Origin: Candidatus Woesebacteria bacterium GW2011_GWF1_31_35
Lineage (GTDB): Bacteria > Patescibacteriota > Microgenomatia > UBA8517
Reading direction: 5' to 3'
Assembly: GCA_001029755.1 (NCBI GenBank)
Contig: CP011214.1
Span: 273,564-337,563 of the forward strand
Length of the DNA: 64,000 nt
Shown: positions 6,391 to 60,823 of the stretch, piece after piece
Numbering within the stretch: the first letter of the stretch is position 1
How the letters are laid out: each line of letters starts with the position of its first letter
The notes under the pieces: model-generated
Database searches by the model: none
The model's input: only the letters and a program-made list of their open reading frames with translations
What the model was told of the DNA's origin: nothing
Made by a program: the position numbers and the translations under genes

Positions 6391-6760
6391 TGGTGGAGAT
6401 GGAGGGAATCGAACCCTCATCCGAAAAACTTAAAAACAAAACTTCTACAAGCTTATTTAGTTAATAATTTTTCCTTTAAATTTATCCAACTAACAGGAAT
6501 CTAAAGTAAGATTTAATTATCTTTTAAAAAATTTCTCTAAATCAAAAGAAATTAGTTAGCATCTCGAATTGGTTTACACCCAGTCAGTTCAGTCGAGAAC
6601 CAAACGTCAGGACGCTAATTAAGAATATGCCAAAGCATATTGGAAATTAGAAGCATAACTGTTAGGTTTTGCTTTTATTTTTTGATATCTTTTTACAAGT
6701 GTTTATCAAACTTGGCTTGCTGTTTTGTTAAAGAGCTTCCCGTCGAAACCGGTCATCCCC
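6391..6760 (-). ncRNA. ssrA: tmRNA (ssrA)
   Basis: Minus-strand 5' end GGGGATGACCGGTTTCGACGGG (canonical tmRNA start) at 6741-6760, and 3' tRNA-like end GGTTCGATTCCCTCCATCTCCACCA at 6391-6415. Lies directly downstream of smpB. Confidence 0.8.
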
Positions 6761-9262: not shown

Positions 9263-9334
9263 GTCCCCGTAGTTTAACGGATAAAATATCAGATTGCGGA
9301 TCTGAGGCTAGAGGTTCAATTCCTCTCGGGGACA
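9263..9334 (+). tRNA. tRNA-Arg (anticodon GCG)
   Basis: 72 nt. Acceptor GTCCCCG/CGGGGAC, anticodon stem TCAGA/TCTGA with loop TTGCGGA, T arm AGAGG-TTCAATT-CCTCT. Confidence 0.6.
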
Positions 9335-9370
9335 CAAGGTATAATTAATTTTTAATTAGAACTTTTTTTT

Positions 9371-27248: not shown

Positions 27249-28412
27249 ATGTGGCTAACAGAAGAATTAAATAATCTAAAAAAATCAGGACTTTATAATA
27301 ATATTTTAACCATAGAAAGTCCTATTGGGGGAGAGATAATAATTGAAGGAAGGAAACTACTTAATTTTTGTTCTAATAACTATTTAGGTCTTGCAAATAA
27401 TCCTCGTCTTAAAAAAGCAGCAATCGCTGCAATTAATAAGTTTGGTGTTGGTCCTGCTGCAGTTAGAACAATTGCAGGAACTACTACTTTACATAAAAAA
27501 CTTGAAAAAGACTTGGCAAAGTTTAAAAAGTGTGAAGCTGTTCTTACCTTTCAAAGTGGTTTCATGGCAAATTTAGCTACAATTCCTGCTTTAGTTGGTG
27601 AAGGAGACTTGATTTTTTCGGATGAACTTAATCATGCCAGTATTATTGATGGTTGTAGAATCTCAAAAGCTACAGTTATTCGTTTTAAACACGCAGATAC
27701 TGTTGATTTAGAATCTTTACTTAAAAAAGCTTCTAAAAAAGTTAAGAAACTAGTAATTACTGATGGAGTATTTTCAATGGATGGAGATATTGCACCCTTA
27801 GATAAAATTTATAAAGTAACTTCAAAATATGGAGCACTTTTAATGGTTGATGATGCACATGGTGAGGGAGTATTAGGTAGAAATGGTAGAGGAATTGTTG
27901 ATCATTTTAATCTTCATGGAAAAGTTGATATTGAAGTTGGAACAATGAGTAAAGCCCTTGGAGTTGTTGGAGGTTTAGTTGCTGGTAAAGGTGAAATTAT
28001 AGAATGGTTAACCCAGCGCGCTAGACCATTTCTTTTTTCTTCAGCTATGACAATTCCTGATGTCGGAGCCTGTATTGAAGCTGTAAAAATTTTAGGAAGC
28101 TCCGGCGTCTTAGTTAAAAAACTTTGGAGTAATGCGGATTATTTAAGTAAAGGTTTAAGTAGATTTGGGTTTGATACAGGTAAAAGTCAAACTCCCATAA
28201 TTCCTTTAATGTTGGGGGAAGTTACTTTGGCAAAAGAATTTAGTAATTTACTTTTTGAAAACGGAGTATTTGCAAAAGCAATTGGCTATCCGACAGTTCC
28301 AGAAGGGAAAGCAAGAATTAGAATAATGAATACTGCGGTTCACACCAAAAAAGACCTTGATAAAGCTCTTTTGGTTTTTGAAAAAGTAGGTAAAACTTTA
28401 AAAGTAATTTAA
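27249..28412 (+). CDS. Pyridoxal-phosphate-dependent glycine C-acetyltransferase / 8-amino-7-oxononanoate synthase family enzyme (Kbl/BioF-like)
   Basis: 387 aa. [21 protein letters not shown]...[15 protein letters not shown] and the PLP-lysine region GTMSKALG. Confidence 0.7.
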
Positions 28413-29365
28413 CATCTTACATTAGCTCCACAATTCTGACAATTAGATATTAGTTGTCCAGATGGTCTTCTGTTAGTTGCACCACAACTTGGACAGGGAA
28501 ATTCTAAGGATCCATATTCATCTGAATATCCAAATGCAAGTGTTTGTGTTTCAGTATTTAGGCCATTTGTATTTAAAAGAGTGATATTTGATTTTCCACA
28601 TCCTGATTTTTCAAGATTCATTCCAAATCCTGCTTTTTCCATTTCTGTCTCAATATAGGCTCCATATTCAAATGGATTACTATAAATTACTGATAGGTTT
28701 TTCATAATTGGTTTATTTACAATAGTAGCTTTTTTTAAAGCTTTGGCTTTATTTTTGACAGCTGTTCCATCTAAAATACTTTGAAAAATTTCTTTTTCTG
28801 GTAATTTGATTATTTCAGACAGATAACTAAAAGGATCTTTCTCTGGTGGTATTTCTAATTTAATTACAATTGATTTTAAATCATCTAAATTTTGTGGAAA
28901 TAGATAATTATTTGAAGAAACAGATACAAGCAGTTGACCAAGTTTTAAACAATCATCTTTTGACAAAGTTGTACTTATTCCATAAGATTCAAAATATTCA
29001 AATTTTTTGCTTTTAGTAATTCTTTTTGCACCTATGTCAATTCTTGTTTCAGGCCAAGGATTTGGTGGACTAATCCAAACATAAGCAAAATTTTCGGTAT
29101 CTTCAAGAAGGAGTTTTCTTATTTCTTCACCAGCAGGAGTTAGAGGATCGTTTCTTACAAACATTTCTGAAACATCTCTTCTATCTATTCCTGGAGCAAT
29201 AACTTTATTTCTCTCTCTTTTTATATAATGATGTGGATTCACTCGTGGATTTCCAGTGTTTGAAGCTTCAATAACAAGAGAAGCTGTGTCATTATTTAAG
29301 GAAGCCAATTTCTGGGGAGTATCGTATCTTCTTAGATCTAGTGCAATAAATTGTTCTTTTGACAT
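28409..29365 (-). CDS. Hypothetical soluble protein with C-terminal double-CxxC zinc ribbon, preceded by a cobalamin-riboswitch-like leader
   Basis: 318 aa. C-terminus [28 protein letters not shown]. No other motif I recognise. Confidence 0.35.
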
Positions 29366-29445
29366 ATTTTCCTGCTCGGGTTTTAGTGGGTTCTGGGTTT
29401 ACAGTAGCGGCACTCCCACGGAATTTCACCGTGATTCACCAAATT
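29366..29445 (-). ncRNA. Candidate cobalamin (B12) riboswitch in the 5' leader of the 28409..29365 gene
   Basis: The minus-strand RNA reads GGUGAAAUUCCGUGGGAGUGCCGCUACUGUAAACCCAG...GAGCAGGAAAAUAUG. This matches the cobalamin-riboswitch core GGUGnAAnUCC...CCGCCACUGUAA (B12 box, one mismatch) and the 3' GCCAGGA-like element adjacent to the start codon. The segment is locally GC-rich. Confidence 0.45.
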
Positions 29446-29507
29446 TATTAACACATTACAGTTTATGTTACACTTTTTGTAAAGGGGTAATTTGAAATAA
29501 AAGGGGG

Positions 29508-50223: not shown

Positions 50224-53200
50224 ATGGTAAGACTTAAAAATAAAAAAATTAAAAAACAAATAAGTTTTGAAAGTTTTAAAGCTCCAACATACGAAAAGAT
50301 TAAAACTCTAATTAATAAAAAGATTGGTGCAAGACCTAGTATTCCTGATGATTTAGCAAAAGGGGATTGGACTGAACAAGCATTAAAAGTTTTAGAGGAA
50401 AGATATTTAATTAAAGATAACGATTTAAAACCAATAGAAACTCCTGAAGACATGCTTTGGAGAGTCTCTTGGGAAATTGCATCTTCAGAAGCAAGATGGG
50501 GAACTACTAAAAAAGATGTAGAAAAGATAGCACGAGATTTTTATGGTCTCATGGTTTCAAGAAAATTTTTACCAAATTCTCCAACCTTAATGAATGCTGG
50601 AACAAATAATGGTTTACAGTATTCTGCTTGTTTTGTTCTTCCAATAGAAGATTCAATGGAAGGAATTTTTGATGCTTTAAAATATCAAGCAATTATTCAT
50701 AAAACTGGAGGAGGAACAGGATTTGCATTTAGTCGATTAAGACAAAATGGATCGGTTGTTAAAACTTCAAGCGGTACTGCTTCAGGACCAATTTCTTTTA
50801 TGAGGATTTTTGATGCTGCAACAAATGAAGTTAAACAAGGGGGAAAAAGAAGAGGGGCTAATATGGGAATTTTGCGAGTTGATCATCCTGATGTATTGGA
50901 ATTTATTCATTGTAAAGAAGAGGGAGGTATTACTAATTTTAATATTTCGATTGCCTTAACTGATGCCTTTATGAAGGCTTATCAAAATGGAGAAAATTAT
51001 GACTTGATAAGTCCTAAAAACAAAGAAGTTGTTGGAAGCCTTTCTGCAAAGTTGGTTTTTGATGAGATTGCAGATGGAGCTTGGAGAACTGGAGATCCTG
51101 GTTTAATTTTTATTGATAAAATTAATAGTAGTACTGCTAATCCTGTACCATCAATTGGTGCAATTGAAGCTACTAATCCATGTGTAACAGGAAACACTTT
51201 GGTGTCTACAAACAGAGGATTAGTAAAAATTGAAAATCTTTACTTAGATAAAAGAAATACAAAAATTTTAACAGATAGTAGACTTTCAGATATTAAGTTT
51301 CAGATTCCTTCTAGGATTTTGCAGACAGGTAAAAAACAGGTTTACAAATTAACAACATTTGAGGGGTATGAATTAAGCCTTACAGGGAATCATAAAGTTT
51401 TAACTGAAAGAGGTTGGGTTGAAGCTTTAAAGTTGAGAGAAAATGACAAAATATTTATTTCTAATAGGAAGGGTAGTTTTGGTGTTGAAGGATCTCTGGA
51501 TGAAGGACAAATTATTGGATGGTTGGTTGGTGACGGAACAATGAAAAGGACTCAAGCGATTCTATCCTTTTTTGGTTACGAAAAACAGGAATTGGCACCA
51601 AAGTTTGCTCAAATGGTGGAACATTTAGTTGATGGAAAACAAATGTTAGCTAGGAATTATTCTGTTTCAGTAATTAATATTAATGACAGGGATGAAGCAA
51701 GAGTTCAATCTACAAGGTTAGCTAGATATATGAATGAAATTGGTATAGATAAAGATTCAAAATTAAAAGTTCCAGAAACAGTTTTGTTAGGAAACGAGGA
51801 GATGCAAAAAGGATTTTTGCAAGCATTATTTACCGCAGATGGTCATGTTGGTGGGAATGCAGAAAAAAGTGTCAGTGTGAGATTAACATCTATTTCAGAT
51901 TCATTATTAAAAGATGTACAGAGAATCCTTCTAAATTTTGGGATTGTAAGTAAAATTTACACAGAAAGAAGAAAAGAACAAAAAAGATTTTTACCAAATG
52001 GTCGTGGGGGATCTAAGGAATATTTGTGTAAATCATATAGTGACTTAGTAATTTCAAAATCATCTTTAAAAGTTTTTAAAGATAATATTGGTTTCTTGTC
52101 TGAATGTAAAAATATAAAACTTGTTACATTGTTAAATGAATACAAAGAAGGGCCTTATAAAGAAAATTTTATTGCTAGATTTAAAAAATTAATAAAAGAA
52201 GGCGTTGAAATGGTCTATGATTTAACTGAGCCATCTACGTCATCCTTTATAGCTAATGGTTTAGTTGTTCATAATTGTGGAGAACAGCCGTTATATCCAT
52301 TTGATGCCTGTAATTTAGGGAGCATATTTCTAACATATTTTATTAAAGATGGAGAAATTGATTGGGATGAACTAAAAAAAGTTACTAGAACCTCAGTTAG
52401 ATTTTTGGATAATGTAATTGAAGTTAATCCATATCCATTAGAGCAGATTAGAAAAACAGTCTTTGCAATAAGAAGAATTGGTTTAGGTATTGGAGGTTGG
52501 GCTGATATGCTTTTGGAACTTGGGATTCCATATGATTCAGAAGAAGCAATAACCCTAGCTGAAAAAATAATGAAGACTATTCAAGACGAAGCAGTTGAAG
52601 AAAATGAAAAATTAGCCAAAATTAGAGGAGCATTCCCACTTTTTAAGAGTTCAATCTATAAAAATGGAAAACCTAGAAGAAACTCAACCGTTACAACCAT
52701 TGCCCCAACTGGAACAATATCGATAATTGCAGGAGCATCATCAGGAATTGAACCACTTTTTGCAATTGCTTATCAACATATTGTTAAAGATAAACATTTA
52801 GATAGAAAGATGACATTTGTAAATCCTAAATTTGAAGAAGTTTCACGAAAAGAAGGTTTTTGGAGTAAAGAACTAATGGACAAAGTGGGAGAATTAGGAG
52901 TTATTCGTGGTATTAATGAAGTACCTCAAAAGATAAAAGATATTTTTGGTACAGCTCATGAGATTAATCCTGAATGGCATATAAAAACACAAGCAATTTT
53001 CCAAAAATATACAGAAAATGCTGTTAGTAAGACAATTAATTTAAAAAGTGATGCAACTGTTGATGATGTTAAAAAAGTATATCTTGACGCATGGAATGCA
53101 GAATGTAAGGGAATAACAGTTTTTAGAGATGGATGTAAAGATACTCAAGTTTTAAACCTTGGTATCAATAGTCAAAAGAAAGAAATTGAAAAAGAAGAAG

Positions 53201-53799
53201 AAAAATCTGAAGAGCCTTTAAGACATAGGCCATATGTTGTTAGAGGTTCAACATATAGGTTGTCAACTCCTGTTGGTACTGCTTTTATAACCATAAATGA
53301 AGATGAAGAAGGTCAACCCTTAGAAGTATTTATTAATGTAGGAAAAGCTGGTTCAGATGTTGCAGCAATGGCAGAAGCCTTGGGTAGAACAATTTCAACA
53401 ACCTTAAAATTTAGAGGAAATATATCAGCTAAAGAAAAGGCAAGAGAAATTGCAGAACAGTTAGCGGGGATTGGCGGGAGAAGATCAATCGGTTTTGGAC
53501 CTACTAAAATAAGGTCTCTTCCCGATGCTATAGCAGGAGCAATTTCAGTTCATTATAACTTTGGTATTAATGGATATCATAATAGTCCAAATATTTTTGG
53601 AGGAAATCAATCAAATGGAAATATTGTAAGTGAAGTAATTGCATCAGCACCACATGTTGAAGAAAAACAACAAGAGAGCCTCTTTTTGCAAGCATCTAAA
53701 GAAAAAGTGGGAGATATATGTCCATCTTGTGGAGCTTCTGCCTTAGTATTTGAAGAAGGTTGTAGTAAGTGTCATGCGTGTGGTCATTCTGAATGTTAA
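50224..53799 (+). CDS. nrdJ: Adenosylcobalamin-dependent ribonucleotide reductase (class II, NrdJ) interrupted by an intein
   Basis: 1191 aa. The extein active-site motif ATNPC|GEQPL is split by a 365-aa insertion. B12-dependent RNR features are present, including the C-terminal CPSCG...CSKCHACGHSEC. Confidence 0.85.
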   Translation: MVRLKNKKIKKQISFESFKAPTYEKIKTLINKKIGARPSIPDDLAKGDWTEQALKVLEERYLIKDNDLKPIETPEDMLWRVSWEIASSEARWGTTKKDVEKIARDFYGLMVSRKFLPNSPTLMNAGTNNGLQYSACFVLPIEDSMEGIFDALKYQAIIHKTGGGTGFAFSRLRQNGSVVKTSSGTASGPISFMRIFDAATNEVKQGGKRRGANMGILRVDHPDVLEFIHCKEEGGITNFNISIALTDAFMKAYQNGENYDLISPKNKEVVGSLSAKLVFDEIADGAWRTGDPGLIFIDKINSSTANPVPSIGAIEATNPCVTGNTLVSTNRGLVKIENLYLDKRNTKILTDSRLSDIKFQIPSRILQTGKKQVYKLTTFEGYELSLTGNHKVLTERGWVEALKLRENDKIFISNRKGSFGVEGSLDEGQIIGWLVGDGTMKRTQAILSFFGYEKQELAPKFAQMVEHLVDGKQMLARNYSVSVININDRDEARVQSTRLARYMNEIGIDKDSKLKVPETVLLGNEEMQKGFLQALFTADGHVGGNAEKSVSVRLTSISDSLLKDVQRILLNFGIVSKIYTERRKEQKRFLPNGRGGSKEYLCKSYSDLVISKSSLKVFKDNIGFLSECKNIKLVTLLNEYKEGPYKENFIARFKKLIKEGVEMVYDLTEPSTSSFIANGLVVHNCGEQPLYPFDACNLGSIFLTYFIKDGEIDWDELKKVTRTSVRFLDNVIEVNPYPLEQIRKTVFAIRRIGLGIGGWADMLLELGIPYDSEEAITLAEKIMKTIQDEAVEENEKLAKIRGAFPLFKSSIYKNGKPRRNSTVTTIAPTGTISIIAGASSGIEPLFAIAYQHIVKDKHLDRKMTFVNPKFEEVSRKEGFWSKELMDKVGELGVIRGINEVPQKIKDIFGTAHEINPEWHIKTQAIFQKYTENAVSKTINLKSDATVDDVKKVYLDAWNAECKGITVFRDGCKDTQVLNLGINSQKKEIEKEEEKSEEPLRHRPYVVRGSTYRLSTPVGTAFITINEDEEGQPLEVFINVGKAGSDVAAMAEALGRTISTTLKFRGNISAKEKAREIAEQLAGIGGRRSIGFGPTKIRSLPDAIAGAISVHYNFGINGYHNSPNIFGGNQSNGNIVSEVIASAPHVEEKQQESLFLQASKEKVGDICPSCGASALVFEEGCSKCHACGHSEC
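51181..52275 (+). mobile_element. Intein (365 aa) with LAGLIDADG homing-endonuclease domain inside NrdJ
   Basis: Starts with Cys (CVTGNTLVST), ends with VVHN followed by extein Cys (CGEQPL). Two LAGLIDADG motifs: IIGWLVGDGTM and FLQALFTADGHV. Inserted within the conserved NPC|GEQ catalytic motif of the RNR. Confidence 0.85.
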
Positions 53800-54323: not shown

Positions 54324-54650
54324 ATGGGACTACTGCCTGAAAGAGAACCAATTAAAAAAAGTTATGAGAATCCTGACGAGGCTTCTCCTTTAAATATTGA
54401 AAGAAAAGAAGTTGTTTCTCCAGTTCTGACTCATTTTAAAGCTCAAGTTAAAAATGATAAAGGACAAAACTTGATCGAGACTCCTGAAGGAAGAAAGATG
54501 GAAATAAAGATTCCTGAAGATAGTAAAGAATCTTTGGAAGGAAAAATTAAAGGATCAAAAGATGAATCTTCAGCTTGGTCAGCCGGATATTGGTTAAGAA
54601 TAATAAAAAAAGCTATATACTTTGGATGGAAGGTGGTGTTTGATAAATGA
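54324..54650 (+). CDS. Hypothetical protein, start-stop coupled to the downstream ATPase
   Basis: 108 aa, acidic, with an amphipathic C-terminus. Confidence 0.2.
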   Translation: MGLLPEREPIKKSYENPDEASPLNIERKEVVSPVLTHFKAQVKNDKGQNLIETPEGRKMEIKIPEDSKESLEGKIKGSKDESSAWSAGYWLRIIKKAIYFGWKVVFDK

Positions 54651-56974
54651 TTGTTCCTGATTTAAATTCAATAATTTTATTTTTAATTTTAATTATCTTT
54701 TTGGTGTTTTTGATTGCCACTGTTAGTTATGTAGTCTTTGTTATTTTTAGGTTTAGAGGAAGGGAGGAAAAATCAGTTGATTCAGTATATTTACAAGTTT
54801 CAGTTCCACGACTAAACGAAACAAAGACTGATGCCATGGAACAACTCTTTTCATCTCTTTATTCGATGAAAAAAGGAGGTTGGAAACAAAAATTTTCAGT
54901 GCAACCATCCATTTCTTTTGAGATTATTGCCAAAGAAGAAGATATTAAATTTTATGTTTGGACACCTACAGAATATAAAGATTTGGTTGAAAAACAAATT
55001 CATGGTGCATATTCTGATGCTGAGATTATGGAGGTTCCTGAAGTTAATATCTTTGAAACTGATGGTAAAGTTTCCTATAAATCTTTACAGTTATCAAAAG
55101 CAAATTATTATCCATTAAAGACTTTTAAAGATTTACCAACTGATATTTTAGCCTCACTTACATCATCTCTTGCTAAATTAACAGAAGGTGAGGGGGCTGC
55201 AATTCAGATATTAATTTCACCGGCAGAATCTGAATGGCAAAAATCAGGTAGTAAATATATATCAGATACTAAAAAACAGGAAAGCAGTTCAGAAAGTGCC
55301 AAATATGCAGTTTCTGGTAAAGCCTTGGAAGCAATTGAAAATAAAGTAAGCAAAATAGGTTTTTTAACTTCGATTAGAATTGTTGTTACCTCAAAAACTA
55401 AAGAAATTGCCAAGATGAATCTTGATAATATTGTTTCTTCCTTAGGTCAAACATCTGGAGAATTTAATAATTTAGGCAGTAGAAAAATATACAATAAAGG
55501 TGGCTTCATGCAAGATTTCCTTTATAGGTACCAACCAATGTTTAATGTGTTTAAAAATCATATTTCAATTTTAAATTCTGAAGAGTTGGCAACCATTTTT
55601 CATTTTCCAAATAGACAAATTACAACACCACATATCCATTGGTTACACTCAAAAACTGCTCCAGCTCCAGCAGAGATTCCTGAAGAAGGAATTTATTTGG
55701 GTAAAAGTATTTATAGGGGAATGACAAGAAAGATTGCGATTGGGGATGAAGATAGAAGGCGCCATGTTTATATTATTGGAGCGACAGGTGTTGGAAAAAC
55801 AGAATTAATGAAAGGTATGATTATGCAGGATATAAATGCAGGACGTGGAGTTTGTTTTATGGATCCACATGGAGATGCTGTTGAAGATATCTTAAAACTT
55901 ATTCCACCAGAACGTGCTGAAGATGTTATTTATTTTAGACCATCAGATACAGAAAGACCAATGGGGTTAAATTTGATGGAAGCAAATACTGAGGATGAAA
56001 AACATTTTGTAGCCTCATCAATTATTAATATGATGTATAAACTTTTTGATCCTTATAAAACTGGAATTGTAGGACCCCGTTTTGAACATGCAGTTAGAAA
56101 TGCAATGCTTACTATCATGTGTGAAAAGGGTGCTACCTTTGTTGAACTAATGAGAGCCCTAACTGATGCAAGGTATGTCCAAGAATTACTTCCTAAGGTC
56201 ACAGACCCAATTATTAGACGCTACTGGACAGACCAGATAGCTCAGACTTCTGATTTTCATAAATCGGAAGTATTAGATTACATAACTTCCAAGTTTGGAA
56301 GATTTGTTACTAATAAAATGATCAGAAACATTATTGGTCAATCTGAATCTTCATTTTCGTTTAGAGATGTTATGGATAATGGAAAGATACTTCTTATTAA
56401 CCTTGCAAAAGGAGAATTGGGAGAAGAAAATTCTAATTTTTTAGGTTTAATATTAGTTCCTAGAATATTAATGGCAGCCATGAGTAGAAGTGATACTCCA
56501 GAAGAAAATAGACGTGATTTCTATTTTTATGCTGATGAGTTTCAAAACTTTGCAACACCTGATTTTGCAGTAATTTTGTCTGAGGCTAGAAAATATAGAT
56601 TAAATCTAACTGTTGCCAATCAGTTTATAGGCCAAATTGAAGAAGAAGTCAAAAATGCAGTCTTTGGAAATGTGGGTACAAAAGTTTCATTTAGAGTAGG
56701 CGTTACTGATGCTAATTATTTACAACATGAATTTACTCCAACTTTTGGTGAAGATGATTTATTAAATGTAGAAAGATATCATGCATATGTTAAAACAATT
56801 GTTCATAATCAGCCTCAAACTCCATTTTCAATTGATACAACAGTAGATAGAGCTAAAATTAAAGATATGGAAAATCCCAGAACTGCTGAAATAATTAAAG
56901 AAATGAGTAGATTAAAATATGGAAGAGATGCAAGACTTGTAGAAGCGGAAATCACTAGACGTGCAAAACTTTAA
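54647..56974 (+). CDS. T4SS-type AAA ATPase with N-terminal TM helix (VirD4/TraG coupling-protein-like; VirB4-like not excluded)
   Basis: 775 aa. N-terminal TM, Walker A IIGATGVGKTE, FMDPHGDAVEDIL (resembling the T4CP DPKGD region), Walker B FYFYADEFQNF. Confidence 0.45.
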   Translation: MIVPDLNSIILFLILIIFLVFLIATVSYVVFVIFRFRGREEKSVDSVYLQVSVPRLNETKTDAMEQLFSSLYSMKKGGWKQKFSVQPSISFEIIAKEEDIKFYVWTPTEYKDLVEKQIHGAYSDAEIMEVPEVNIFETDGKVSYKSLQLSKANYYPLKTFKDLPTDILASLTSSLAKLTEGEGAAIQILISPAESEWQKSGSKYISDTKKQESSSESAKYAVSGKALEAIENKVSKIGFLTSIRIVVTSKTKEIAKMNLDNIVSSLGQTSGEFNNLGSRKIYNKGGFMQDFLYRYQPMFNVFKNHISILNSEELATIFHFPNRQITTPHIHWLHSKTAPAPAEIPEEGIYLGKSIYRGMTRKIAIGDEDRRRHVYIIGATGVGKTELMKGMIMQDINAGRGVCFMDPHGDAVEDILKLIPPERAEDVIYFRPSDTERPMGLNLMEANTEDEKHFVASSIINMMYKLFDPYKTGIVGPRFEHAVRNAMLTIMCEKGATFVELMRALTDARYVQELLPKVTDPIIRRYWTDQIAQTSDFHKSEVLDYITSKFGRFVTNKMIRNIIGQSESSFSFRDVMDNGKILLINLAKGELGEENSNFLGLILVPRILMAAMSRSDTPEENRRDFYFYADEFQNFATPDFAVILSEARKYRLNLTVANQFIGQIEEEVKNAVFGNVGTKVSFRVGVTDANYLQHEFTPTFGEDDLLNVERYHAYVKTIVHNQPQTPFSIDTTVDRAKIKDMENPRTAEIIKEMSRLKYGRDARLVEAEITRRAKL

Positions 56975-57919: not shown

Positions 57920-58603
57920 TTGATTATGACAAAATTTTTGGAAAGAAGCGAGGTAATTAAATTAAGACTTCAGGGTAAAAGTTATAGTGAAATAAAGCAA
58001 ATTGTGAATGTATCTAAAAGTTCATTAAGTTTATGGCTTAGAAATGTTCAACTTACAGAAAAACAAATCTCTGGATTAAAAGAGAAAAAAATAAGATCGG
58101 TTGAAAGATTTATTAAATCAATGAAAATAAAAAGACAGATTCGATTGGAAACATACTTAAATAATCAAAAACACAAATGGTTACCGCTTTCTGAAAGAGA
58201 AGAATTTATTGCTGGACTTTTTCTTTATTCAGGAGAGGGAAATAAAGTAAGTTCAAATAGTATTTCGATATCAAATACTGACCCATCTGTTATTAAATTT
58301 TCGTACTATTGGATGCAAAATTGTTTACTAATTCCGAGAGAAAAAATATTTTTAAAATTACATCTATATGATGACATGAATATTGAGGAAGAAACAAATT
58401 TTTGGTCCAAAGAAATAGGAATAGATAAAAAACAATTTAAGCGACCATACATAAAAAAATCTTCAAGAATTGATATCGATCAAAAGGGATATGGTCATGG
58501 AACTTGTGGAGTTTGGGCATTCAAAACAGAGATAAAAGAAAATATACTTATGGCTCTAATGGCAATTTTAAATCATTATGCTTCTAAAATGACTCGACTT
58601 TGA
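57920..58603 (+). CDS. HTH + single-motif LAGLIDADG-like endonuclease-family protein, immediately upstream of tRNA-Ile(UAU)
   Basis: 227 aa. HTH (GKSYSEIKQIVNVSKSSLSLWLRNV) plus EEFIAGLFLYSGEGNK motif. Paralog of 7964..8638 and 10390..10803 (shared NFW, KQFK, YGxGTC motifs). Stop is 15 nt before the tRNA. Confidence 0.4.
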   Translation: MIMTKFLERSEVIKLRLQGKSYSEIKQIVNVSKSSLSLWLRNVQLTEKQISGLKEKKIRSVERFIKSMKIKRQIRLETYLNNQKHKWLPLSEREEFIAGLFLYSGEGNKVSSNSISISNTDPSVIKFSYYWMQNCLLIPREKIFLKLHLYDDMNIEEETNFWSKEIGIDKKQFKRPYIKKSSRIDIDQKGYGHGTCGVWAFKTEIKENILMALMAILNHYASKMTRL

Positions 58604-58618
58604 TATAATCATTAAATT

Positions 58619-58691
58619 GGCTCGGTAACTCAGTGGTCAGAGTGCCAACCTTATAAGTTGGAAGTCGATGGTCCGATCCCATCCCGAGCCA
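58619..58691 (+). tRNA. tRNA-Ile (anticodon TAT / UAU)
   Basis: 73 nt. Acceptor GGCTCGG/CCGAGCC, D arm ACTC-AGTGGTCA-GAGT, anticodon stem CCAAC/GTTGG with loop CTTATAA, T arm GATGG-TCCGATC-CCATC. No encoded CCA. A TATAAT box lies at 58603-58608. Confidence 0.65.
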
Positions 58692-58709
58692 CTAAATTAT
58701 TATTAACCA

Positions 58710-59135: not shown

Positions 59136-59999
59136 TTATAGCTCAATTAAAGACTGTTTTTTACTTGATTCTGTAGTTCCTGCAAGTTCAATATATCTTT
59201 CTGTGGTTGAAAGTCTTTTATGTCCTGCAACTTGAGAAATTAAAATTAAATCAACTCCATTTTTAATGTTTTCTACAATAAATGTGGTTCTTAAATCGTT
59301 TACAGAATATTTTGGAAGTTCTGCTTTTTGAATAAATCTGTCAACTGATGCTCTTATATTTCTAACTGCAAGTGGTTTTCCGGTCTTACTGATAAAAATA
59401 TATTCGGAAACCACTTTTGGTCTTTCAATCATATACTTTTCAATTGCTTCTTTTGCTGGTTTATTTAAAGGAATTGTTCTTTCAGGTTGTGTTGCATAGC
59501 CCTCAATCTTTATAGTTTCTTCATTAATATCAGCAGTTTTAATATTAGCTACTTCTGAAATTCTTAAACCAGTTTGAAGTATTAATTCAATCATTGCAGA
59601 TATTCTAGGATCATTTCTTACAGCATCTCTTAAAGCTCTATACTCTAAAGGAGTTAAAAACTTAGGCATTGAAGCCTCCACCTTAGGATGAGATACACTT
59701 TTAGATAAATCAGTTGAAAGATAGTTTTGTTCTACCATCCATCTAAAGAATGTTTTAACAGCATTTAATTTTCTAGAAACTGATTTTGGTGTATATTTTT
59801 CAGAAAGTAGGGTATCTCTAAATGAATCTAAATTAGAAAGTTTAACTTGGTCTGGAGTTGCAATACTACCTTTAGTCAAAAATTCCACTAATTGCTCAAG
59901 ATCAGATCTATACGCTAAAATCGTGGCTGGAGACCTACCTTTTTCAGCCAAACTTGCCATGAATTTTGGCAATAAACTTTTAATTGTATCCTGTGTCAT
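59136..59999 (-). CDS. Tyrosine site-specific recombinase (XerC/XerD-like)
   Basis: 287 aa. N-terminal SAM-like domain and a C-terminal catalytic region with R...HxxR...Y (GHKRLSTTERYIE). Confidence 0.75.
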   Translation of the reverse strand: MTQDTIKSLLPKFMASLAEKGRSPATILAYRSDLEQLVEFLTKGSIATPDQVKLSNLDSFRDTLLSEKYTPKSVSRKLNAVKTFFRWMVEQNYLSTDLSKSVSHPKVEASMPKFLTPLEYRALRDAVRNDPRISAMIELILQTGLRISEVANIKTADINEETIKIEGYATQPERTIPLNKPAKEAIEKYMIERPKVVSEYIFISKTGKPLAVRNIRASVDRFIQKAELPKYSVNDLRTTFIVENIKNGVDLILISQVAGHKRLSTTERYIELAGTTESSKKQSLIEL

Positions 60000-60424: not shown

Positions 60425-60432
60425 CTCCCTTG

Positions 60433-60692
60433 TTGCGGAGCTGGGAGTTGAACCCAGCCTGCGAGATTATGCTGTTCTGTAATCTCCAATTACTTGGAGT
60501 GCCGGACTATATCTTCATCCTATTTTTAGGAGCTCGGCGTGTAGTCTCTAGGGGGTCATTTTTAGACTTCCCTCGGGATTGACCTTTTAAAAAAAAGGCG
60601 TTCCCCGATATAGCCAAGTTTCACTTTTAACATTACTATTAAAGTGGCCCAATTTTAGTTAAGCCTCGCGTGCAGCCGTACACTACCCCGCA
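60433..60692 (-). tRNA. tRNA (anticodon CAT; Met or Ile2 type) interrupted by a group I intron in the anticodon loop
   Basis: Minus-strand 5' exon TGCGGGGTAGTGTACGGCTGCACGCGAGGCT (60662-60692) and 3' exon CATAATCTCGCAGGCTGGGTTCAACTCCCAGCTCCGCAA (60433-60471). These reconstitute acceptor TGCGGGG/CTCCGCA, anticodon stem CGAGG/TCTCG, loop CT|CATAA and T arm CTGGG-TTCAACT-CCCAG. The exact splice junctions are inferred. Confidence 0.55.
60472..60661 (-). mobile_element. Group I intron (about 190 nt) within the tRNA(CAU) gene
   Basis: The minus-strand sequence carries group I core elements: an R-like AGAGACTACA, an exact S element AAGATATAGTCC (GACTA/TAGTC form P7), a P-like AAATTGGGCC, a Q-like AATCCCGAGG, and a terminal G. 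It is locally GC-rich. No ORF inside. Confidence 0.6.
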
Positions 60693-60749: not shown

Positions 60750-60823
60750 GGCAGGGTAGCTCAGTTGGTTAGAGCACTGGATTCATATCCCAGAGGTCGT
60801 GGGTTCGATCCCCACCCCTGCTA
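60750..60823 (+). tRNA. tRNA-Met-type (anticodon CAT), intronless
   Basis: 74 nt. D arm GCTC-AGTTGGTTA-GAGC, anticodon loop TTCATAT, T arm GTGGG-TTCGATC-CCCAC, acceptor GGCAGGG/CCCTGCT (G1·U72 wobble). Confidence 0.75.

Follow-up and report, generated by a model that had tools for sequence, protein, structure and literature searches.

TilS is, to our knowledge, regarded as essential and almost universal in bacteria, where its substrate tRNA-Ile2(CAU), once modified with lysidine, reads the AUA codon. The replacement of this lysidine-dependent decoding by an isoacceptor with the anticodon UAU is an already known kind of system. In Mycoplasma mobile, whose genome is AT-rich and reduced, an encoded tRNA-Ile2(UAU) replaces tRNA-Ile2(CAU) and TilS; its U34 has been shown to be unmodified, and in its isoleucyl-tRNA synthetase (IleRS) Arg865 takes the place of a conserved Trp (Taniguchi et al. 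2013, PMC3575796). A tRNA-Ile3(UAU) is present, and the CAU-type Ile2 absent, in Bifidobacterium, Neorickettsia and the archaea Nanoarchaeum equitans and Korarchaeum cryptofilum, a pattern that surfaces as a "missing Ile2" in genome surveys (PMC8450103, PMC3575796). The exceptions named in earlier surveys are limited to Mycoplasma, Bifidobacterium and Neorickettsia, with nine species in 2013 (PMC3575796) and, in the complete-genome survey of 2021, only 17 bacterial genomes with the pattern, Patescibacteria not being named (PMC8450103). Here we describe a tRNA-Ile(UAU) gene located in a stretch of 64,000 nucleotides (hereafter, the window) of the Candidatus Woesebacteria bacterium GW2011_GWF1_31_35 genome (GCA_001029755.1, contig CP011214.1, positions 273,564 to 337,563), whose product is probably a functional and dedicated AUA decoder that in this genome replaces the tRNA-Ile2(CAU)/TilS system.

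The locus resembles that of M. mobile in the encoded UAU anticodon, in the AT-rich, reduced genome (the G+C content of the window is 31.7%) and in the probable replacement of tRNA-Ile2(CAU) and TilS. The two cases differ in that the state of U34 and the synthetase change have been established for M. mobile, whereas the window tRNA is known here from its gene alone; moreover, the window tRNA additionally carries C55 and A10:U25, and within the Mollicutes the change is limited to single species, whereas the trait in Patescibacteria appears to span whole classes. Bifidobacterium and Neorickettsia possess a eukaryote-type IleRS; the window contains no ileS, and the likeness to these organisms is one of tRNA genes. 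A further parallel is the Bacillus subtilis tilS suppressor, in which one anticodon mutation of tRNA-Ile1 (GAU to UAU) gives a UAU tRNA and makes TilS dispensable (Fabret 2011; Köhrer 2014, PMC3919564); that tRNA arose in the laboratory from tRNA-Ile1(GAU), whereas the signature of the UAU family and a CAU look-alike, both described below, point to a natural origin from tRNA-Ile2(CAU). Lactobacillus casei, Cyanothece PCC 7424 and Ferrimonas balearica likewise harbor a UAU isoacceptor but have kept tRNA-Ile2(CAU) and tilS; unlike the L. casei type, GCA_001029755.1 has only two CAU tRNAs, both of Met type.

The tRNA-Ile(UAU) gene (tRNA positions 1-73) extends from 58619 to 58691 on the plus strand. 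ARAGORN calls a tRNA-Ile(tat) at 58619-58692, and the Rfam model RF00005 matches 58619-58691 over its full length with 68.0 bits (E = 1.1e-12) and zero non-canonical pairs, which is the top Rfam score among all the tRNAs of the window. The preliminary description of this DNA had placed the start of the tRNA at 58603, which is instead the final base of the upstream stop codon, the true start being 58619; its assignment of the anticodon UAU to the loop CTTATAA (58650-58656) is borne out both by the sequence, with TAT (U34, A35, U36) at 58652-58654, and by ARAGORN, which sets the anticodon at position 34. The anticodon is preceded by U33 and followed by A37 and A38 in a seven-nucleotide loop of a canonical cloverleaf, and the discriminator base A73, at 58691, is followed by CTA, i.e., the CCA end is not encoded.

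Position 55 of tRNAs is near-universally U, modified to pseudouridine (Psi). The T loop of the window tRNA, TCCGATC (58672-58678), is slightly atypical, as had been noticed: in the Rfam alignment, C55 (58673) replaces U55/Psi55, the T-loop region of the other window tRNAs displayed (four tRNA-Ser, tRNA-Arg, tRNA-Asn and the two CAU tRNAs) being GGTTCRA. C55 is also found in the tRNA-Ile(UAU) of the closest relative, locus L028, and in those of L021, L014 and L029. More generally, C55 recurs across several tRNAs of Microgenomatia and other Patescibacteria, including the Met tRNAs of L028 and L022 besides the Ile-UAU ones, which hints at a relaxed constraint on the Psi55/TruB site. As regards charging, the isoleucine identity elements of Escherichia coli, said to have been defined by Nureki and colleagues in 1994, reportedly comprise A73, A35-U36, A37/A38, U12:A23, C4:G69 and C29:G41. 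The window copy presents A73, A35, U36, A37, A38 and U12:A23, but has U4:A69 and A29:U41; A73, A37, A38 and U12:A23 are invariant in the alignment of the family, in which the D arm and the loops were preset by the search pattern. tRNA-Ile(UAU) is a real gene and most probably a functional one.

The homologues of the gene were retrieved with a degenerate pattern, run against a single genome for each GTDB species, which yielded 36 loci (designated, like the other loci compared here, by L numbers). Most of them bear Patescibacteria labels (Woesebacteria, Roizmanbacteria, Microgenomates, Parcubacteria, Saccharibacteria and unplaced members), while 10 of the 36 are labeled Gammaproteobacteria, Omnitrophota or Phycisphaerae. 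The closest homologue, L028, is identical to the window tRNA at 70 of 73 positions. Since the pattern had fixed the D arm and the loops, the stems alone are informative in the family alignment; among its 32 distinct sequences, cloverleaf pairing holds in 99.3% of the cells and 16 of the 21 pairs show double compensatory changes, a level of pairing that was reached by none of 500 shuffles and that slid registers were nowhere near.

The two CAU tRNAs previously noticed at 60.4-60.8 kb do exist, and they belong to two classes (L and S) that are conserved across the syntenic loci. The class L tRNA, of elongator-Met type, lies at 60750-60823 on the plus strand (ARAGORN; Rfam 67.9 bits) and has G2:C71, C3:G70, A4:U69, A73 and C11:G24, with an ordinary elongator D stem. 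The class S gene occupies 60432-60692 on the minus strand, where a group I intron of 190 nt at about 60472-60661 (Rfam Intron_gpI, 89.1 bits) separates position 33 from position 34 (ARAGORN -i: tRNA-Met c[60432,60692] i(32,190)); in the relatives, class S genes are intron-less and 70-73 nt long. Base for base, the window gene is the one published as Met(CAT) 33/34 for GCA_001029755.1 (PMC13011429, supplement), so that the description of group I introns in the tRNA-Met(CAU) of Patescibacteria includes this very sequence and provides its context. The class S acceptor stem is UGCGGGG/CUCCGCA-A in the window and UGCGGGG/CYCCGCA-A across the loci; its positions 2-7 (GCGGGG) and G12:C23 match initiator tRNA (fMet), while the remaining initiator marks (C1xA72, three G:C pairs at 29-31:39-41 and A11:U24) are replaced by U1:A72, A29:U41, G30:C40, G31-U39 and U11:A24. 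Class S would be the initiator tRNA by elimination, not by family membership. The probable initiator tRNA of this organism thus requires self-splicing.

Which isotype these two tRNAs represent can be judged from the pair 3:70, C3:G70 being typical of Met and fMet tRNAs, while tRNA-Ile(CAT) is marked by G3, A3, C70 or T70, often together with C4:G69 and C5:G68 (Silva et al. 2006, PMC1635315). Both window tRNAs have C3:G70 and lack the C4:G69/C5:G68 signature of Ile2, which supports the earlier suspicion that both are Met-type. The same picture is offered by the sister genome GCA_016700095.1, with a class S homologue of 94% identity: the two Met tRNAs counted there by tRNAscan-SE equal in number the two CAU tRNAs of ARAGORN, so that both CAU tRNAs are by implication typed as Met. 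ARAGORN v1.2.41 with the option -i, i.e., the version and option used in the published survey of Patescibacteria tRNAs (PMC13011429), finds both CAU genes of the window, and the table of that survey reports two ARAGORN -i Met tRNAs for the complete genome GCA_001029755.1. Since both are located in the window, there is no third CAU tRNA detectable by ARAGORN -i; initiation and elongation each require a tRNA-Met of their own, which uses up the two genes and leaves none for the TilS substrate tRNA-Ile2(CAU). On the basis of the tRNA counts of the complete genome and of the Met/fMet-like 3:70 pairs, the genome appears to be devoid of tRNA-Ile2(CAU).

The AUA codon is far from rare in this DNA. In 18,044 codons, counted in the window open reading frames (ORFs) of at least 100 amino acids among 72 greedily chosen ones, ATA occurs 464 times, corresponding to 25.7 per 1000 codons (28% of the Ile codons), vs. 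7.4 per 1000 for ATC and 16.2 per 1000 for ATG. Its meaning was read from alignments of seven genes with their orthologues: window ATA codons face Ile in 64% and Met in 3% of the cases (55% and 3%, respectively, once positions with ATA in the orthologue too are left out), while window ATG codons face Met in 57%. AUA, being frequent and aligned with Ile, is therefore a major isoleucine codon that needs an efficient reader. The idea, already put forward in the preliminary description, that the UAU tRNA reads AUA directly in place of a lysidine-bearing tRNA-Ile(CAU) is thus supported by the count of CAU tRNAs, by the use of AUA and by the covariation of the family.

The pattern extends well beyond this genome. 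The per-genome tRNA counts published for 95 complete Patescibacteria genomes (PMC13011429) were re-analyzed, with non-CAU tRNA-Ile taken from tRNAscan-SE and CAU tRNAs from ARAGORN. Forty-five genomes have at least two non-CAU tRNA-Ile, 40 of them with two CAU tRNAs at most and five with at least three; where there is just one non-CAU tRNA-Ile, as in the other 50 genomes, CAU tRNAs number three or more without exception. A Fisher test on these counts gives p ~1e-21, a value that is descriptive only, as it ignores phylogenetic non-independence. The second tRNA-Ile is found in 12/12 Microgenomatia, 7/7 Dojkabacteria, 4/4 ABY1, 15/20 Paceibacteria and 2/5 Gracilibacteria, and a single tRNA-Ile in 34/36 Saccharimonadia and in all JAEDAM01. 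Such complementarity of Ile and CAU genes is what one would expect if the UAU tRNA replaces tRNA-Ile2(CAU), and the direct reading of AUA by a UAU tRNA seems to be the standard arrangement in roughly half of the Patescibacteria, and not a peculiarity of this genome. The window copy appears to be an ordinary member of this clade-wide trait, as expected for a Woesebacteria genome.

The stems of the family also bear on its origin. In the alignment (n = 32), the pair 3:70 is G:C in 21/32 sequences, 4:69 is C:G in 26/32 and 5:68 is C:G in 16/32; according to the rules of Silva et al. (PMC1635315), G3:C70, C4:G69 and C5:G68 represent the signature of tRNA-Ile(CAT). A metagenome scan for the same tRNA body with a CAU anticodon disclosed five JGI contigs (L046-L050), all with the rare A10:U25 D arm, whose acceptor stem, GGGCCUG/CAGGCCC (G3:C70, C4:G69, C5:G68), lay outside the pattern and resembles those of L004, L010 and L015. 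The comparison of nearest-neighbor tRNAs is partly circular, the D arm, the variable loop and the T loop having been fixed by the pattern, so that the likeness of the acceptor stem is its independent part. The ancestor of the UAU family may have been related to the CAU tRNA of these contigs, and the whole modestly suggests, the similarity being mostly imposed by the pattern, that the family descended from tRNA-Ile2(CAU) through a C34-to-U transition. A BLAST search of E. coli genomes with a composite, family-like tRNA retrieved an accessory tRNA-Ile at 76% identity and was uninformative.

Concerning its expression, the gene is preceded by a putative extended -10 promoter, TGATATAAT, at 58601-58609 on the plus strand. 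Its hexamer TATAAT (58604-58609) directly follows the TGA stop codon (58601-58603) of the upstream ORF, with 9 nt left between its end and the first nucleotide of the tRNA. A -10 box had been described 11 nt upstream of the tRNA and within the last codons of the ORF; the hexamer is indeed there, but it comes after the stop codon, the gap is of 9 nt, and the overlap of TGATATAAT with the stop codon concerns just the TG of the extended -10. A TGnTATAAT-like motif precedes the mature 5' end by 9-14 nt in the window and in L028, L027, L012, L004, L003, L007, L031, L033, L018, L024 and L011, including genomes in which the upstream neighbor is a different gene or another tRNA. A generic sigma-70 scan of this AT-rich region gave 16 sites, vs. 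13.6 +/- 3.7 expected by chance, without listing the tRNA-Ile site; since that scan is at chance level, support for the promoter comes from its conservation across species, which supports an independent, predicted extended -10 promoter of tRNA-Ile(UAU).

The tRNA would be transcribed from this promoter, abutting the upstream stop codon, and transcription would start a few nucleotides before position 1, judging from the promoter position, leaving a very short leader. The precursor would be trimmed and, as CCA is not encoded, the CCA end would be added post-transcriptionally; the tRNA would then be charged by IleRS, which would have to recognize U34, as an enzyme of eukaryote type or one with Arg or Lys at the site of E. 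coli Trp905 could do, and U34 would pair with the A of AUA. By analogy with M. mobile, the leading possibility is that misreading of AUG is avoided through an unmodified U34 together with adapted features of IleRS and of the ribosome.

The order of the genes around the tRNA is conserved: VirD4-like ATPase, (UDP-glucose dehydrogenase), (helix-turn-helix (HTH) ORF), tRNA-Ile(UAU), Xer recombinase on the opposite strand, DivIC, the two CAU tRNAs, tryptophanyl-tRNA synthetase (TrpRS; NCBI AKM83186), a tRNA-binding protein and FtsH. This order recurs in many Woesebacteria-like genomes with 59-91% protein identity, and the window contains housekeeping genes such as dnaG, rpoD, smpB/tmRNA, those of glycolysis and of the pentose-phosphate pathway, and those for penicillin-binding proteins, ribonucleotide reductase and ftsH. 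Because synteny is kept and housekeeping genes lie around it, the locus belongs to the core chromosome and not to an island, and because the gene order recurs across genomes, the Xer recombinase and the VirD4-like gene are to be considered resident chromosomal genes rather than marks of an island.

The gene just upstream of the tRNA (57926-58603, plus strand; NCBI AKM83181, Ca. Woesebacteria) encodes a protein of 225 amino acids according to the JGI call, or of 227 from the first TTG at 57920, which has an HTH at its N-terminus and a LAGLIDADG-like domain at its C-terminus. The latter label, given to it beforehand, holds as far as the motif is concerned: the sequence IAGLFLYSGEG (IAGLFLYxGEG helix in the family) has G105 and G107 invariant and E106 in at least 90% of 38 homologues, i.e., a LAGLIDADG motif with a terminal acidic residue of catalytic type. 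It finds no counterpart in family matches: Pfam yields HTH_23 alone, below the cut-off, and no LAGLIDADG_1/2/3 match, a PDB sequence search gives nothing under E = 0.26, and Foldseek no endonuclease. The homologues are 798, nearly all unnamed and of about 220-229 amino acids. The family is found in the window and in L003, L011, L018, L028, L035 and L039-L045, and in 11/11 loci it precedes tRNA-Ile(UAU) on the same strand at a distance of 17-44 nt, five of these loci having been picked via the protein and not via the tRNA. It is missing from many syntenic genomes; within the tRNA cluster of Roizmanbacteria type, for instance, it is present in L003 and L035 and absent from L007, L031 and L033. 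Weaker paralogues (30-34% identity) occur upstream of tRNA-Met genes (L024, L027) and near tRNA-Gly (L021). The ORF may target the flanks of tRNA genes, either as a free-standing gene of homing-endonuclease type or as a DNA-binding derivative akin to WhiA; tRNA-Ile(UAU) is independent of it. In L026 (about 6606-6660, minus strand), a sequence resembling a 5' half-tRNA with a UAU-like loop (ggagccgtagctcattggtagagcggttgtcttatgacagc) is located directly upstream of an intact tRNA-Ile(UAU), and it may be the scar of a recombination or integration event in this variable slot.

The reading of the UAU tRNA as the replacement of the lysidine system has to be weighed against the possibility that tilS and tRNA-Ile2(CAU) are retained and that the UAU tRNA is an extra reader of AUA. 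Several observations weigh against replacement, some of them in favor of such redundancy. Both systems occur together in some bacteria, such as Lactobacillus casei, Cyanothece and Ferrimonas (PMC3575796), and the five Patescibacteria genomes out of 45 that have a second tRNA-Ile and three CAU tRNAs indicate that they can coexist in this phylum as well; the published table, moreover, gives no anticodons, so that the second tRNA-Ile was counted irrespective of its anticodon, and the lineages compared are not independent. In the genome itself, neither CAU tRNA, class S included, carries the canonical marks of a bacterial initiator, so that the initiator and elongator roles are assigned partly by elimination, and tRNAscan-SE reports three Ile tRNAs for GCA_001029755.1 vs. 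two reported by ARAGORN (PMC13011429, Table S2), the third lying outside the window; on our reading, this third gene is not a CAU tRNA, provided that the tRNAscan-SE columns omit Ile2 and fMet. As regards tilS, which in many bacteria is located just upstream of ftsH, the search with PF01171 (the TilS PP-loop) covered about 72 kb, or some 10%, of the 755-kb contig (the window and the adjoining 8 kb, including the region just upstream of ftsH), where it gave no match; the loss of tilS from the genome is therefore inferred from the complement of tRNA genes. What makes redundancy unlikely is that the complete genome has two CAU tRNAs by ARAGORN -i, when the initiator and the elongator tRNA-Met are both indispensable, that both carry C3:G70 and neither the C4:G69/C5:G68 signature of Ile2, that the counts of GCA_016700095.1 imply the Met type for both its CAU tRNAs, and that CAU tRNAs are at most two in 12/12 complete Microgenomatia genomes.

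Two further explanations concern the nature of the gene itself. It might be the cargo or the scar of an integrative element or of a homing endonuclease cassette rather than the main decoder of AUA, in view of its neighbors, i.e., a tyrosine recombinase (59136-59999), a TrwB/VirD4-like gene (54647-56974) and the LAGLIDADG-like ORF, and of the slot preceding the tRNA, whose content varies among genomes and in L026 includes the half-tRNA fragment. This origin is very improbable, given that the order recombinase, VirD4-like gene, DivIC, TrpRS, FtsH is constant in many genomes (59-91% identity), which points to vertical inheritance, that tRNA-Ile(UAU) is present with or without the upstream ORF, and that the remainder of the window consists of housekeeping genes. 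A mobile island, in particular, is at odds with the synteny of the recombinase and VirD4-like genes from genome to genome and was therefore rejected. The gene might otherwise be a decaying pseudogene, or be charged with an amino acid other than isoleucine: C55, which abolishes the universal Psi55 site, and A10:U25 are unusual in a fully functional tRNA, and the window copy, with U4:A69, is devoid of C4:G69 and C29:G41, two of the pairs reportedly used in E. coli. Such decay or altered identity is scarcely credible for a gene that has the top Rfam score in the window with all stems perfectly paired, whose family shows compensatory evolution, with C55 recurring in independent lineages with intact stems, and in an organism where AUA is frequent and aligned with Ile, not with Met; the invariance of A73, A37, A38 and U12:A23 in the family points in the same direction, the D arm and the loops having been preset by the pattern. 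A functional tRNA-Ile(UAU) that replaces tRNA-Ile2(CAU) and TilS thus remains the preferred explanation.

Other features of the window deserve mention. Selfish elements are abundant in this region, comprising, besides the group I intron and the LAGLIDADG-like ORF, inteins with LAGLIDADG_3 endonuclease domains (precomputed Pfam) in ribonucleotide reductase and FtsH, located at 50224-53799 (plus strand) in the window and at 11327-14536 in L001. An AdoCbl-II riboswitch at 29380-29454 (minus strand; Rfam 38.8 bits, just over the gathering score) lies upstream of an ORF of 318 amino acids (28409-29365) without a Pfam match. Bacteria usually carry tRNA-Arg(ACG), which is edited to ICG by TadA. The window harbors instead a tRNA-Arg with a genomically encoded GCG anticodon at 9263-9335 (plus strand; ARAGORN; Rfam 64.5 bits), which suggests an inosine-free decoding of CGY.

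At the level of the phylum, it is possible, although we propose it tentatively and with slightly less than even confidence, that Microgenomatia, Dojkabacteria, ABY1 and most Paceibacteria (about 40 of the 95 complete genomes) have given up lysidine and read AUA through a UAU tRNA that one change, C34 to U, would have produced from tRNA-Ile2(CAU). The paper from which the counts were taken (PMC13011429, mSystems 2026) contains no discussion of tRNA-Ile(UAU), TilS or AUA decoding, and in the literature searched nothing was found that joins lysidine or TilS with Patescibacteria or candidate phyla, a statement that covers that literature and implies nothing about publication beyond it. If the proposal is true, no other bacterial group that decodes AUA without TilS would come near these organisms in size, and an undescribed adaptation of IleRS, or of the handling of U34, against the misreading of AUG would be implied; together with tRNA-Arg(GCG), this would point to a decoding that dispenses with TilS as well as with TadA, the two essential enzymes of anticodon editing. 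In the annotation of such genomes, CAU tRNAs should not be forced into the Ile2 class, and a "missing Ile2" should not be taken as a sign of incompleteness. The finding bears on the understanding of minimal translation systems, and it raises the questions of how a tRNA with U34 avoids AUG and how it is recognized by IleRS.

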